Virus record (IMG/VR): IMGVR_UViG_2531839476_000015
Span: 1 to 49,036 of that record
Length of the DNA: 49,036 bases
Direction: 5' to 3' (one strand)
Source: a virus
Taxonomy: Duplodnaviria > Heunggongvirae > Uroviricota > Caudoviricetes
How positions within the stretch are numbered: position 1 is the first letter of the stretch; every line of letters begins with the position of its first letter. The notes beneath the pieces were generated by a model. It ran no database searches and had not been told where the DNA came from. It saw only the letters and a program-made list of their open reading frames with translations. This document shows, in pieces, positions 17,549 to 25,481 of the stretch. The position numbers and the translations under genes were made by a program.

Positions 17549-18277
17549 ATGACAATGAATGAGCTGATAAATAGCAATGCCATCAAAATGACAAGCATTG
17601 AAATCGCTGAGTTGGTGGGAAGCCAACACGGTAATGTCAGAATATCAATAGAACGTCTGGCAAAGCGTGGGGTGATTCAACTTCCTTCAATGCAAAAAGT
17701 TGAAAATAAACAAACAATTAGCCCTAACAAATTCACAAGCGTGTATATATTCGAAGGCGAACAAGGTAAGCGAGACAGCATTATTGTCGTCGCTCAGTTG
17801 TCGCCGGAATTCACCGCTCGCCTTGTTGACCGCTGGCGAGAACTCGAAGGGGCAACCGCGAAAATACCACAAACCTTTTCTGAGGCATTGCGCCTTGCGG
17901 CCGACCTTGAAGACCAGAAGGCTGAACTGGAGAAACAGCTTGCTCTCGCAGCACCTAAAGTTGAGTTTGCCGATCGAGTTGGCGAGGCCAGCGGAATTTT
18001 GATTGGAAACTTTGCAAAGGTTGTTGGTATTGGTCCAAACAAACTGTTTGCGTGGATGCGCGATCACAAAATCCTTATTGCTTCAGGTGCCCGGCGCAAT
18101 GTGCCAATGCAGGAATATATGGATCGCGGCTATTTCACAGTGAAAGAAACAGCGGTCAATACAAATCACGGAATACAGATATCGTTCACCACAAAAATCA
18201 CCGGGCGTGGTCAACAGTGGCTGACAAGAAAGCTGCTAGATAACGGAATGCTTAAAGTAACAGGGGAGGCTGCTTAA
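17549..18277 (+). CDS. Rha-family regulator N-terminus with KilAC antirepressor C-terminal domain
   Basis: 242 aa; N-terminal [24 protein letters not shown] resembles Rha family; C-terminal half is paralogous to the 24786..25481 protein (ALRLAA.LE.QKAELE.QLA.AAPK.EF). Confidence 0.7.
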
Positions 18278-18882
18278 TGGCTAAACCAGCGCGAAGGAAA
18301 TGCAAAATCTGTAAGGAATGGTTTCACCCGGCATTCTCAAATCAGTGGTGGTGCAGCCCGGAACACGGAACTAAATTAGCACTCGAACGACGAAATAAAG
18401 AACGCGAAAAGGCGGAAAAAACAGCAGAGAAGAAACGACGACGAGAGGAGCAGAAACAGAAAGATAAAATTAAGATTCGAAAACTCGCCTTAAAGCCCCG
18501 CAGTTACTGGATTAAACAAGCCCAACAAGCCGTAAACGCCTTCATCAGAGAAAGAGACCGCGACTTACCATGTATCTCGTGCGGAACGCTCACGTCTGCT
18601 CAGTGGGATGCCGGACATTACCGGACAACTGCTGCGGCACCTCAACTCCGATTTGATGAACGCAATATTCACAAGCAATGCGTGGTGTGCAACCAGCACA
18701 AAAGCGGAAATCTCGTTCCGTATCGCGTCGAACTGATTAATCGCATCGGGCAGGAAGCAGTAGACGAAATCGAATCAAACCATAACCGCCATCGCTGGAC
18801 TGTCGAAGAGTGCAGGGCCATCAAGGCGAAGTATCAGCAGAAACTTAAAGACCTGCGAAACAGCAGAAGTGAGGCCGCATGA
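18277..18882 (+). CDS. ninG: NinG (Rap, Holliday-junction endonuclease)
   Basis: 201 aa, near-identical to lambda NinG (MAKPARR.CK...[20 protein letters not shown]...). Confidence 0.92.
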
Positions 18883-19073
18883 CGTTCACAGTAAAAACCA
18901 TTCCTGACATGCTCGTTGAGGCATATGAAAATCAGACCGAGGTAGCCAGAATACTGAACTGTAGTCGCAACACGGTCAGAAAATACACTGGCGATAAAGA
19001 AGGAAAAAGACACGCTATTGTCAACGGTGTTCTTATGGTTCATCGCGGATGGGGTAAAGATACTGATGCGTGA
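18879..19073 (+). CDS. ninH: NinH
   Basis: 64 aa [64 protein letters not shown]. Confidence 0.8.
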
Positions 19074-19500
19074 TATCCGGCAGGTTCTTGAGCGCTGGGG
19101 TGCATGGGCGGCAAATAACTATGAGGATGTTACATGGTCGCCCATTGCTGCCGGATTTAAGGGACTGATCCCCGAAAAAGTAAAATCACGTCCACAGTGT
19201 TGTGACGATGACGCGATGATTATATGCGGGTGTATGGCTCGCCTTAACAGGAACAACAGCGATCTGCATGACTTGCTGGTTGATTATTACGTGTTGGGGG
19301 AGACGTTCATGGCGCTGGCACGGAAACATGGGTGCTCTGACACCTGTATAGGTAAACGCCTTCACAAAGCGGAGGGGATTGTTGAAGGCATGCTGATGAT
19401 GCTGGGAGTGAGGCTTGAGATGGATCGGTATGTTGAGCGTGAATTGCCGGGAGGGAGAACCTCTGTATTTTATCAGCGAAAAAATAGTTTACGATCGTAA
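19066..19500 (+). CDS. Q: Late antiterminator Q (phage 21 / 933W type)
   Basis: ORF track 19018..19500; start placed at [24 protein letters not shown]...[17 protein letters not shown], which matches the Q of Stx phages as recalled. Confidence 0.85.
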
Positions 19501-19750
19501 AAATCTGCATATCATGATAAGAGTGGTTACATTGCCACGCTGCTTAACCCGCCGATGCGCGGGTTTTTTTGTACCCAGAATCCTGTGAGCTATACGGAAA
19601 GTACACAGAAAGGAAGGTGCGACCACAATTAATAACAAAATCTTAAAAATTGCACATGGCACTATTAGTTTTCTAAATATTGTGTATTTTTTGTATTGCA
19701 GGATGACCCTGTAACGAAGTTTGCGTAACAGCATTTTGCTCTACGAGTTT

Positions 19751-19779
19751 GCCAGCCTCCCCCAGTGGCTGGCTTTTTT
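19751..19779 (+). terminator. tR'-like intrinsic terminator (GCCAGCC-n9-GGCTGGC then T6)
   Basis: 7-bp stem and T tract about 250 nt downstream of Q; an earlier hairpin-T7 lies at about 19547-19570; coordinates approximate. Confidence 0.5.
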
Positions 19780-19782
19780 ATG

Positions 19783-19911
19783 TCCGTAGCGTCAAAGCAG
19801 CAATGTCGCTGGGGCGTCGTGCAATTGGCGTTGAGCTGGACACCGGACGTTTTGAGCAGACCGCAAGGGATGTACGGAATTTAATCAGAAAGAGAGAGTG
19901 ATATTGCTGAA
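19783..19911 (+). pseudogene. 3' remnant of a DNA methyltransferase gene (...SLGRRAIGVELDTGRFEQTARDVRNLIRKRE)
   Basis: Short frame ending with the LGRR.IG.E motif typical of the C-terminus of DNA methyltransferases; no corresponding N-terminal part upstream. Confidence 0.4.
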
Positions 19912-23363: not shown

Positions 23364-23579
23364 ATGTACCAGATGGAAAAAATCACAACGGGTGTGTCAT
23401 ACACCACGTCAGCGGTGGGGACGGGCTACTGGTTCCTGCAGCTGCTGGACAAAGTCTCTCCGTCCCAGTGGGTGGCAATAGGTGTGCTGGGGAGTCTGCT
23501 GTTTGGCCTGCTGACGTATCTGACAAACCTTTATTTCAAGATTAAAGAAGATAAGCGTAAGGCGGCGCGGGGAGAGTAA
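23364..23579 (+). CDS. S: Holin (933W/DLP12 EssD type) with dual-start motif MYQMEK
   Basis: 71 aa [71 protein letters not shown]; two Met codons three codons apart suggest holin/antiholin pair. Confidence 0.88.
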
Positions 23580-23583
23580 AGCG

Positions 23584-23928
23584 ATGAAGAAAAAATACGA
23601 ACTGGTTGTTAAAGGGATAAATAATTACCCGGATAAGATTACTGTTACTGTGGCACTGGAAATTGGTGGGTATCCGTCACTGTTGTTGCCAGATGTGGCG
23701 ATTAGTCTTGACCGTACTGAAGGTGCCACGCTGGAGTTTTACGAAGCTGAGGCGAAAAAGCAGGCGAAGCAGTTTTTCATGGATGTTGCTGCCGGGTTAT
23801 GTGAAGGGGATGGTCCGTTGCCGGAAAAGCGGCCCATCATTTTAGAGGCGCAGGATGTGTTGATAACCTACAGAGGAAACCTACCGGGAATAATTACTGG
23901 TTCTCTGAAGACTCCACCGCTGGCCTGA
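23584..23928 (+). CDS. DUF1327-like protein (YdfR-like) between holin and endolysin
   Basis: 114 aa; position and size match the ydfR-type gene of the K-12 Qin prophage lysis cassette (recalled). Confidence 0.55.
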   Translation: MKKKYELVVKGINNYPDKITVTVALEIGGYPSLLLPDVAISLDRTEGATLEFYEAEAKKQAKQFFMDVAAGLCEGDGPLPEKRPIILEAQDVLITYRGNLPGIITGSLKTPPLA

Positions 23929-23978
23929 AGACTTAATATATCCAGGGATTTGAAATCGATAAACCCTGATAAATATCC

Positions 23979-24512
23979 ATGAACGCAAAAATCAGATACG
24001 GCGTGTCGGCTGCCGTTCTGGCGCTGATTGGTGCAGGGGCGTCTGCGCCTGAAATCCTCGACCAGTTTCTTGACGAAAAAGAAGGTAACCACACCACGGC
24101 ATACCGTGATGGTGCGGGTATCTGGACCATCTGCCGCGGTGCCATCCTGGTGGATGGTAAACCTGTCGTTCCGGGCATGAAGTTGTCGAAGGAAAAATGC
24201 GACCGGGTTAACGCCATTGAGCGTGATAAGGCGCTGGCATGGGTGGCGAAAAACATCAAAGTGCCACTGACTGAACCCCAGAAAGCGGGTATTGCGTCAT
24301 TCTGTCCTTACAACATTGGCCCAGGTAAGTGTTTCCCGTCGACGTTTTATAAACGAATTAATGCAGGAGATCGAAAAGGTGCCTGCGAAGCGATTCGCTG
24401 GTGGATTAAGGACGGTGGCAGAGACTGCCGTATTCGCTCAAATAACTGTTATGGTCAGGTATCCCGTCGTGACCAGGAGAGCGCTCTGGCGTGCTGGGGA
24501 ATCGACAGATAA
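23979..24512 (+). CDS. R: Endolysin, SAR-type lysozyme (P21 R / RrrD-like)
   Basis: 177 aa MNAKIRYGVSAAVLALIGAGASAPEILDQFLDEKEGNHTTAYRDGAGIWTICRG..., N-terminal signal-anchor-release segment, close to DLP12 RrrD. Confidence 0.92.
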   Translation: MNAKIRYGVSAAVLALIGAGASAPEILDQFLDEKEGNHTTAYRDGAGIWTICRGAILVDGKPVVPGMKLSKEKCDRVNAIERDKALAWVAKNIKVPLTEPQKAGIASFCPYNIGPGKCFPSTFYKRINAGDRKGACEAIRWWIKDGGRDCRIRSNNCYGQVSRRDQESALACWGIDR

Positions 24513-24785
24513 GCAGAATATTTTGCTGAAAAATGACGTTGGCCAGCGCGGGCGGATAACACGAAATCCTGCGAACTGGCAAAATGTAAGTGAATAAAGT
24601 TAGGCAGATTATTTCACGCAGAGGCACCGTAATGGTGCCTTTGTCATTTCTGCGCTTCGCACAAGCGTAAATAAACCAAAGAACCTTTCAGGATGAGCCC
24701 TGGTGGATAACCGGCAGTGGTCTGGTTAACCCTCTTTGGGCTGGTTATTCCTGTGCGCAGGGTTCATCACTAAAAGGAATCAACC

Positions 24786-25481
24786 ATGAAAGAGATGATT
24801 TCTGTCGATCATGAAATATCCATGAGTAGTCTGGATTTTCTGAATAACATTATTAATCCAGCCCGGGCAGAAGCCGGAGAAGTCCCTCATGAACCGCGTA
24901 AGTTTCTTGCAAAAATTGAGGATGAGCTAGAGCTTGATGGAACCGGAAAAAAATTCCGGTTAAACAATAACCAAACAAGAACGGCATACTATGATCTGGA
25001 TTTTGACCAGATGATGCTCGTTGGCATGAGGGAGTCAAAGGCCGTTCGTCGTTCTGTGCTGGCAAGACTCAAAGCGATGCATGGTATTCAGATCCCCCGG
25101 ACTTTACCTGAGGCGTTGCGATTTGCGGCAAAACTGGCTGAACAGAAAGCAGTGCTGGAAAATCAACTGGCAATAGCAGCGCCGAAGGCTGAATTTGTTG
25201 ATAACTATGTTGAAGCATCTGGTCTGATGGGATTCCGGGAAGTTGCTAAGTTACTCGGTATCAAAGAAACCGATTTCCGGCTGTTTTTGTTGGAGAACGG
25301 AATAATGTATCGCCTCGCTGGAAAAATGACGCCTTACTCGCATCACCTGGATGCGGGGCGGTTTAGCGTGAAAACGGGCGAGGCGGGCAATGGTCATGCT
25401 TTTACGCAGGTTAAATTCACCCCAAAAGGTGTTCAGTGGATTGCTGGTCTGCTTGCTGCATGGAGAGCTACCGCAGCATGA
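24786..25481 (+). CDS. ant: Antirepressor (AntA-like N-terminus with KilAC C-terminal domain) embedded in the lysis cassette
   Basis: 231 aa; C-terminal half paralogous to the 17549..18277 protein; the same placement between R and Rz occurs in Stx phages. Confidence 0.75.
   Translation: MKEMISVDHEISMSSLDFLNNIINPARAEAGEVPHEPRKFLAKIEDELELDGTGKKFRLNNNQTRTAYYDLDFDQMMLVGMRESKAVRRSVLARLKAMHGIQIPRTLPEALRFAAKLAEQKAVLENQLAIAAPKAEFVDNYVEASGLMGFREVAKLLGIKETDFRLFLLENGIMYRLAGKMTPYSHHLDAGRFSVKTGEAGNGHAFTQVKFTPKGVQWIAGLLAAWRATAA

Follow-up and report, generated by a model that had tools for sequence, protein, structure and literature searches.

A Roi-type and a P1-Ant1-like KilAC-domain protein in the nin region and the lysis cassette of a lambdoid Escherichia coli prophage

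Phage proteins in which a C-terminal KilAC domain is fused to an N-terminal domain of DNA-binding type (KilA-N, Bro-N, Rha or AntA/B) share a common layout, as papers citing Iyer et al. 2002 describe it. Ant of phage P1 binds the C1 repressor, according to the passages of PMC8201110 and PMC9043618 that cite Riedel 1993. In Listeria, the KilAC domain of AriS and of A118 gp42 inhibits the RecA-dependent SOS response, and the swappable N-domain of AriS-like proteins (AntA/B, Bro-N or pRha) serves to regulate genes of the phage itself (PMC9043618, Azulay et al. 2022). Furthermore, the KilAC-only protein CreP, P1 KilA and Phi11 Gp07 are described in the literature as blocking cell division, and CreP and the C-domain of Phi11 Gp07 cause filamentation, also in E. 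coli. Roi is treated as a DNA-binding protein affecting lytic growth in the relevant passages of PMC3430580 and PMC4587872, the former citing Clerget & Boccard 1996 for the role in lytic growth. The Ant-Roi context is conserved in Shiga toxin (Stx) phages (Smith et al. 2012, PMC3430580), and natural IS629 disruptions of roi occur in some Stx2a prophages (Yin et al. 2015, PMC4587872). Here we describe two KilAC genes, gene 1 (positions 17549-18277, + strand) and gene 2 (24786-25481, + strand), of the IMG/VR virus record IMGVR_UViG_2531839476_000015, the whole stretch of 49,036 nucleotides being referred to below as the window.

Our preferred reading, to which we give a probability of roughly 0.55, is that gene 1 and gene 2 are independent members of the modular family that joins an N-terminal DNA-binding domain to KilAC (Roi, P1 Ant1, P1 KilA, AriS), united in one genome by mosaic exchange and acting via a partner independent of phage immunity. 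Both genes are already annotated and common in the genomes of E. coli and Stx phages, and the family relation has long been known, Roi itself since 1996. What changes is the label: the name "antirepressor", which an earlier reading of the sequence (the original prediction) had given to both, is a homology label that carries no evidence of function, and the two genes do not make up a functional pair.

Homology and origin of the two genes

The original prediction took the two proteins for paralogs with an alignable C-terminal block and a KilAC domain. Both open reading frames (ORFs) were recovered at exactly the positions given above, gene 1 with 242 aa (its RefSeq relatives start at 17555 and have 240 aa) and gene 2 with 231 aa. 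BLASTP aligned residues 105-225 of gene 1 with residues 102-219 of gene 2 at 40% identity over 123 aa (E = 4e-22), and the motif quoted in the prediction, ALR.AA.L..QKA.LE.QLA.AAPK.EF, occurs literally in both proteins. The KilAC domain was likewise confirmed, as Pfam PF03374 (ANT/KilAC) was matched far over its cut-off of 25.3 bits by gene 1 (113.1 bits, 1e-32) as well as by gene 2 (98.9 bits, 2.7e-28). An hhalign comparison of the two family alignments, in which the Roi profile was shallow, gave 99.2% probability for the C-terminal halves only; with more diverse profiles from fetched loci, the alignment spanned both proteins (E = 5e-58). When the N-terminal parts only were compared (residues 1-90 versus 1-92), the first ~26 residues, inside which both proteins have the motif "tMSS-E/D", aligned with a score of 32.3 (82% probability, E = 1e-5), and the controls scored 8.7 when reversed and at most 12.6 in 30 column-shuffled runs. 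In addition, the N-termini of both proteins match PHROG 8235, PHROG 63 ("anti-repressor Ant") covers both at full length, and P1 Ant1 bridges the last helices of the two N-domains. The homology probably extends into the N-terminal domains, and the whole architecture is probably common to the two proteins, with strong support for the KilAC half and moderate support for the N-terminal domain. Note that a sequence search of the solved structures in PDB found no relative of either protein, and that PADLOC and NCBIfam scans gave no matches.

Compared over its entire length (242 aa, E = 3e-148), gene 1 has 82% identity with the ORF that occupies the roi position in HK022, and its identity with the protein annotated as Roi in H-19B is 88%; its VT2-Sakai ortholog is named roi, and orthologs have precomputed PF09669 and PF03374 matches. 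Judged by these identities, gene 1 is an ortholog of HK022 Roi. It lies in the nin region directly 5' of ninG, ninH and Q; gene 2 lies 3' of Q, and so is without the Roi location. The protein comprises a putative Rha-like winged-helix N-domain (about aa 1-100), a linker helix and the KilAC domain (aa 128-230, nt about 17930-18238). Roi of HK022 reportedly binds a site within its own gene that adjoins a site for integration host factor (IHF), by which it is said to be modulated, and its C-terminal half is said to have been likened to P1 Ant1 and KilA already. One short palindrome is found inside gene 1 (18007-18022). In a comparison with H-19B Roi (L001:1523-2245), the C-terminal ~140 residues are identical and the differences cluster at residues ~24-66 of the N-domain; such divergence next to a fixed KilAC domain would be expected if DNA-binding specificity varies.

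Gene 2 corresponds to RefSeq WP_000661712.1, "phage antirepressor protein". Its residues 22-223 align with residues 124-341 of Ant1 of a P1-like phage at 37% identity (E = 6e-35), the homology reaching beyond KilAC, and gene 1 from residue 75 on aligns with Ant1 178-342 at 56% identity. The KilAC C-domain of gene 2 covers aa 125-224 (nt about 25158-25457). The AlphaFold (AF2) model of gene 2, with a mean predicted local distance difference test (pLDDT) score of 75, has a beta-alpha-alpha-beta-beta-alpha-alpha N-domain (13-99), a long helix (107-144) and a helix/beta-hairpin C-domain (150-230). Its weak Foldseek matches are mostly winged-helix DNA binders, which is only suggestive. The ratio of nonsynonymous to synonymous substitution rates (dN/dS) against the Plesiomonas ortholog is 0.07 for the whole gene (N-domain 0.06, C-domain 0.08), indicating that gene 2 is under purifying selection with both domains constrained. 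Full-length orthologs of 58-88% identity occur in at least 8 genera.

A recent duplication within the genome, giving gene 2 from gene 1, was ruled out by the identities: gene 1 resembles P1 KilA (65% identity in the KilAC half) and P1 Ant1 (56%) far more than it resembles gene 2 (only 40%). The identity of gene 2 is 38% to P1 KilA in the KilAC domain and 37% to P1 Ant1. The two genes are therefore best read as old family members that were put in one genome by module exchange. Their distribution was examined in 5,426 complete E. coli genomes, among which the whole interval from gene 1 to gene 2 was found at 80% coverage or more in only 6, whereas gene 2 alone had any match in 229 and a match of at least 99% identity in 226, consistent with separate arrival by module exchange. 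Gene 2 is intact and at least 99% identical in about 195-226 of these genomes. In some E. coli genomes the match to gene 2, at ~100% identity, is limited to nt 1-501/525 or to nt 498-696, which suggests a recombination breakpoint inside its KilAC domain and chimeric alleles.

The prophage repressor (11097-11810, - strand) is essentially lambda cI, as had been predicted; its match to PDB 3BDN has E = 6e-154 over 236 residues. The H-19B cI has only a 45-residue stretch of the S24 domain in common with lambda cI, yet the H-19B Roi is 88% identical to gene 1. Similarly, the protein identical to gene 2 (WP_000661712.1) is encoded in the same late module of prophages of O157:H7 F7349 and O111:H2 08-3342, whose early regions are Rac-like (helix-turn-helix repressor, YdaS, YdaT) and contain another antiterminator but neither an S24 repressor nor Roi. 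Because identical or closely related proteins occur under other immunity types, neither gene 1 nor gene 2 is tailored to the cognate repressor.

Genomic setting and expression

Gene 2 lies in an insertion of ~0.9 kb (about 24587-25480), whose borders were placed by aligning the region to H-19B, to YYZ-2008 and to one IMG/VR contig. The left flank of this slot is the endolysin gene R, a phage lysozyme (23979-24512, + strand; "lysozyme" in identical annotated DNA), and the right flank is the spanin gene Rz (25719-26177, + strand; "lysis protein" in identical annotated DNA), in which Rz1 is embedded (25930-26115, + strand). The R-Rz interval is ~300 bp without a gene in H-19B, holds an unrelated P22_AR_N+ORF11CD3 gene in YYZ-2008, and holds gene 2 in the window. 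Among 75 IMG/VR contigs in which R was at least 94% identical and Rz was reached, 25 had an empty slot, 34 had nothing but small hydrophobic (transmembrane) ORFs there, 14 had a P22_AR_N gene and 2 had gene 2. Gene 2 is best described as cargo in a polymorphic slot, present or absent between conserved flanks. Two small hydrophobic ORFs, of 29 aa (25484-25573, + strand) and 43 aa (25576-25707, + strand; annotated as hypothetical and matching PHROG 4906), are conserved backbone and no cargo, since they also occur in slot variants without gene 2. Related strings of 2-4 mini-ORFs fill the R-Rz gap in phages without Ant-like cargo, and the small hydrophobic ORFs before Rz may encode accessory peptides for lysis.

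The left part of the insertion is a structured leader of 199 nt (24587-24785, + strand). Its minimum free energy is -72.5 kcal/mol (z = -4.0 versus shuffled sequence), and the predicted structure consists of a hairpin (24618-24644) and a long stem whose basal helix pairs the Shine-Dalgarno sequence AAAGG with CCUUU at 24684-24688. The hairpin lies 5' of gene 2 and not, like the terminator of a moron, 3' of it. In other phages the same leader (77-95% identity) stands before a P22_AR_N "Ant" gene that is unrelated to gene 2, and the two cargoes are swapped at the start codon; a comparison with Rfam gave no match. On the modelled fold, the leader possibly sequesters the ribosome-binding site of gene 2 and throttles its translation.

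As for expression, a terminator-like hairpin of the nin-region type (17493-17522, + strand) precedes gene 1 by about 30 bp, because of which gene 1 should need N antitermination. The late antiterminator gene Q (19066-19500, + strand) divides the delayed-early region with gene 1 from the late region with gene 2. Gene 2 lies about 5.3 kb 3' of Q and is co-oriented with it, as are all genes between the two, and no sigma-70 consensus promoter was predicted on the + strand of the gap between R and gene 2 (24513-24785). Position and the lack of a predicted promoter support the original prediction of delayed-early (nin) timing for gene 1 and late (lysis operon) timing for gene 2, for which the gene order gives sound grounds. 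LexA boxes (CTGT-N8-ACAG, at most 1 mismatch) were found 5' of neither gene, the only nearby match being inside ninG.

The genomic context of relatives was surveyed with one genome per species, yielding 76 usable loci. Gene-2-type proteins were found in the early operon (cII-ANT-O/P) at 20 of 37 loci and in the late region at 8, and all classified relatives of less than 60% identity were in the early operon. On the other hand, the orthologs of at least 60% identity with usable context were late (in or just after lysis cassettes) in 8 of 12 cases and early in 4. Of the KilAC proteins with other N-domains, 12 were encoded in the early operon, 10 at the Roi position ahead of DUF968/NinG/Q and 1 late. 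The lysis-region site is thus a derived but recurrent location for a mostly early family. Specifically, the Plesiomonas ortholog (88% identity) is flanked by a holin and a non-homologous M15 endolysin gene on one side and by an AntA-domain gene and a spanin gene on the other; the Yersinia ortholog (61%) follows Q, holin, lysozyme and Rz and precedes terminase; the Pantoea ortholog (84%) follows lysozyme and spanin and precedes terminase; and those of Mixta (85%) and Lonsdalea (68%) are in or adjoin the lysis genes. The Providencia ortholog (72%) sits in an early operon, in the order cI / cro, cII, ANT, O, P. A second regulator gene was seen beside some gene 2 orthologs, namely the AntA-domain gene in Plesiomonas and a Rha+ORF11CD3 gene in phage Lys8385Vzw (after Rz) and in Rosenbergiella.

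A third antirepressor-like gene, of the ORF6N + P22_AR_C (Phi24B Ant) type, is located at 16803-17480 (+ strand) and is frame-broken. The Pfam domains were matched in the remnant and in the intact copy of strain CAU16175, from which it differs only by an additional A at about 16898 and a missing A after about 16975, both in poly-A tracts; the broken ORF 17088-17480 matches P22_AR_C. It may be either a pseudogene or the product of a homopolymer sequencing error.

The window as a whole is a stx-less lambdoid prophage of E. coli with lambda immunity. Its backbone is that of the Stx1 phages H-19B and YYZ-2008 (95-96% identity across the region), and the swine strains CAU16175 and PEC240 carry near-identical prophages (99.8% over 17400-25800). 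In the left part, an integrase gene at the left end is followed by the cI repressor gene, cro, cII, O, P, the nin region and Q; in the right part, two tRNAs, TerB and DUF3927 genes, an esterase gene, holin, YdfR, R, gene 2, Rz/Rz1, and the head and tail genes follow. The ninG gene (18277-18882, + strand) is directly 3' of gene 1, with overlapping stop and start codons, and a terminator-like hairpin was computed near Q (19546-19565). Where Stx phages carry stx (19942-20939), the two tRNAs are followed by the TerB-family and DUF3927 genes; ARAGORN assigns these tRNAs as Met-CAT and Arg-TCT, and RefSeq calls the first one Ile. Two perfect LexA boxes in tandem (9861-9876 and 9878-9893, - strand) stand directly 5' of the Shine-Dalgarno sequence and ATG of a 44-aa ORF (9850..9716) that is located between N and the lambda-cI immunity region. 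This ORF, hypothetical protein WP_000929756.1, matches PHROG 21154 (unknown function) and is a candidate for an SOS-induced small protein. Parts of the surrounding 951-bp region (9300-10250) match 1,236 of the 5,426 E. coli genomes, none over 80% of its length or more.

Candidate functions

In the preferred reading, gene 1 (Roi) would be expressed in the nin region from the pR transcript under N antitermination and, judged by orthology, would modulate lytic growth by binding DNA at specific sites. Gene 2 would most likely be transcribed only within the Q-dependent late operon, with translation possibly throttled by the leader that sequesters its ribosome-binding site. The variable, winged-helix-like N-domains would provide phage-specific targeting, and the conserved long helix with KilAC would contact a partner that is independent of the phage's own immunity type. 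The candidates for this partner are host factors (RecA/SOS, the division machinery) and heterologous repressors, rather than the cognate lambda cI. As for the designation as antirepressors, KilAC homology and annotation stood; the functional label did not, given that gene 1 is Roi and that the antirepressor tested in Stx phages is a different gene (16803-17480). The latter, Phi24B Ant, was tested experimentally in Stx phages and boosts pR' activity after induction (PMC3064807).

Several points weigh against this reading. The N-domain of gene 2 has no Pfam match, and Foldseek found nothing significant for its model in PDB (best E = 0.17). The N-domain of gene 1 scores 27.1 bits against Phage_pRha, under the cut-off of 29.9, and its AF2 model was unreliable (pLDDT 49, from the shallow Roi alignment), so that it was discarded. 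Gene 2 resembles the SOS-inhibiting A118 gp42 only marginally (23%, E = 0.013). A negative from consensus-based promoter prediction carries little weight, and the covariation in the leader consists of three compensated pairs from essentially two sequence lineages. Furthermore, the closest characterised full-length homolog of gene 2 is P1 Ant1, a genuine antirepressor, and by this analogy gene 2 may well bind a repressor.

Of the alternatives, the one that survives best is that of the original prediction, in which both proteins would inactivate CI-type (or Rac/Gifsy-type) repressors of other resident prophages and thereby induce them in trans. Gene 2 is a near-full-length homolog of P1 Ant1, for which antirepressor activity was shown biochemically, but P1 C1 is unrelated to lambdoid repressors, so that target specificity is not transferable; Roi, for its part, was described as binding DNA rather than as an antirepressor. 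The RecA-cleavable lambda cI needs no antirepressor, which counts for this alternative, and so does the occurrence of identical gene 2 in prophages with Rac-type, non-SOS repressors. The independence of both genes from the cognate immunity type is compatible with it, but fits host targets equally well. Precedents for antirepressors that act in trans, those of the Gifsy phages as well as P22 Ant with its effect on lambda cI, are mentioned in PMC3064807 and PMC10448788; gene 1 and gene 2 lack the LexA box, unlike the SOS-controlled Gifsy-type antirepressors, and a late protein would appear minutes before lysis, with little time to induce another prophage productively. On balance we consider cross-prophage antirepression doubtful, while counting it as one of three plausible live options.

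The second option, damping of the host SOS response, predicts the opposite effect, namely suppression of co-resident prophages. As in AriS, KilAC would damp RecA/SOS after the commitment to lysis, limiting the induction of rival prophages and tuning the early-to-late switch, and the N-domains would regulate the phage's own genes. The combination of pRha and KilAC is one of the three AriS-like types in PMC9043618, and the KilAC half of gene 1 is 32% identical to A118 gp42 (E = 4e-16), but the similarity of gene 2 to gp42 is marginal, as stated above. The invariance of KilAC across heteroimmune phages fits a host target, and most family members are in early operons like ariS and gp42. However, the activity has been shown only in Listeria and upon overexpression, direct RecA binding has not been demonstrated even for AriS, and SOS damping in the late phase would be of little obvious benefit. 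We regard this option as unlikely.

The third option is that KilAC inhibits growth or division of the host, as P1 KilA and CreP do, so as to divert resources to the phage, with the leader keeping a toxic product low. It would explain the sequestered Shine-Dalgarno sequence, which is typical of genes with limited product, and agrees with the KilAC identity to P1 KilA (65% for gene 1, 38% for gene 2) as well as with the filamentation caused by CreP and the Phi11 Gp07 C-domain, also in E. coli. The toxicity of P1 KilA may, however, come from either of its domains, plaque-forming phages carry and express Roi without a reported toxicity phenotype, and a division block is worth little at the lysis stage. 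We regard this option as improbable.

A last possibility, that recombination left gene 2 behind in the lysis cassette as a passenger without function, is disfavoured as highly improbable, for although the slot is polymorphic and often empty, both domains are constrained (dN/dS 0.07), the gene is intact and at least 99% identical in about 195-226 E. coli genomes, and full-length orthologs across genera repeatedly adjoin lysis genes.

A broader and rather speculative interpretation, which we think unlikely to hold, is that the R-Rz slot would be a dedicated landing pad for interchangeable antirepressor-like regulators behind a common translation-gating leader (KilAC here, P22_AR_N elsewhere, AntA/Rha adjoining in other genera). 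These would act late in trans, either waking non-SOS (Rac/Gifsy-type) prophages or shutting off RecA signalling so that competitors stay silent. If this were true, the lysis cassette would be a site of inter-prophage warfare in polylysogenic cells. The by-products of the present analysis are of modest interest in themselves, i.e., the polymorphic R-Rz slot with its shared structured leader and the independence from immunity type. An action of the late KilAC protein on co-resident prophages or on SOS, if shown, would be relevant to the induction of Stx phages and to competition among prophages in pathogenic E. coli with at least 10 lambdoid prophages.

Comparison with described systems

P22 Ant and Phi24B Ant have the same annotation label as gene 1 and gene 2, but no sequence or domain relation to them (no P22_AR_N, ORF6N or P22_AR_C match). 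Genes of that type do occupy the nin position 16803-17480 in the window and the R-Rz slot elsewhere (YYZ-2008 and 14 of the 75 contigs), behind the same leader. Rem of the Qin prophage (PMC10448788) was considered as a precedent and rejected, as it is an unrelated small Gifsy-type antirepressor located outside lysis cassettes.

With respect to Ant1/Ant2 of P1 and P7, gene 2 aligns over the middle region of Ant1 and its KilAC domain, and the N-terminal ~120 residues of Ant1 have no counterpart in gene 1 or gene 2. Neither an icd homolog nor the immI context nor kilA/repL neighbours are present near the two genes; gene 2 is instead preceded by endolysin and a non-coding leader, and gene 1 by the broken P22_AR_C gene and a terminator-like hairpin. 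C1, the target of P1 Ant, has no counterpart in this prophage, in which gene 2 sits in the lysis cassette. The N-domain of P1 KilA, KilA-N (PF04383), is in neither gene.

Gene 1 has the same nin position and the same putative Rha-like N-domain with KilAC as Roi of HK022, H-19B, VT2-Sakai, 933W-type phages and HK620, from which it differs in the putative DNA-recognition residues (about 24-66) and in being paired here with lambda-cI immunity. Gene 2 has no full-length ortholog relation to Roi; only the KilAC half is common, at 40%. AriS and gp42 differ in their N-domain (AntA/AntB), gene 2 is late, and SOS inhibition is known from Listeria. On the other hand, the two-domain layout is the same in all of them, with a swappable N-domain and a C-terminal KilAC, and relatives of the proteins described here are mostly encoded in early operons, as are ariS and gp42.

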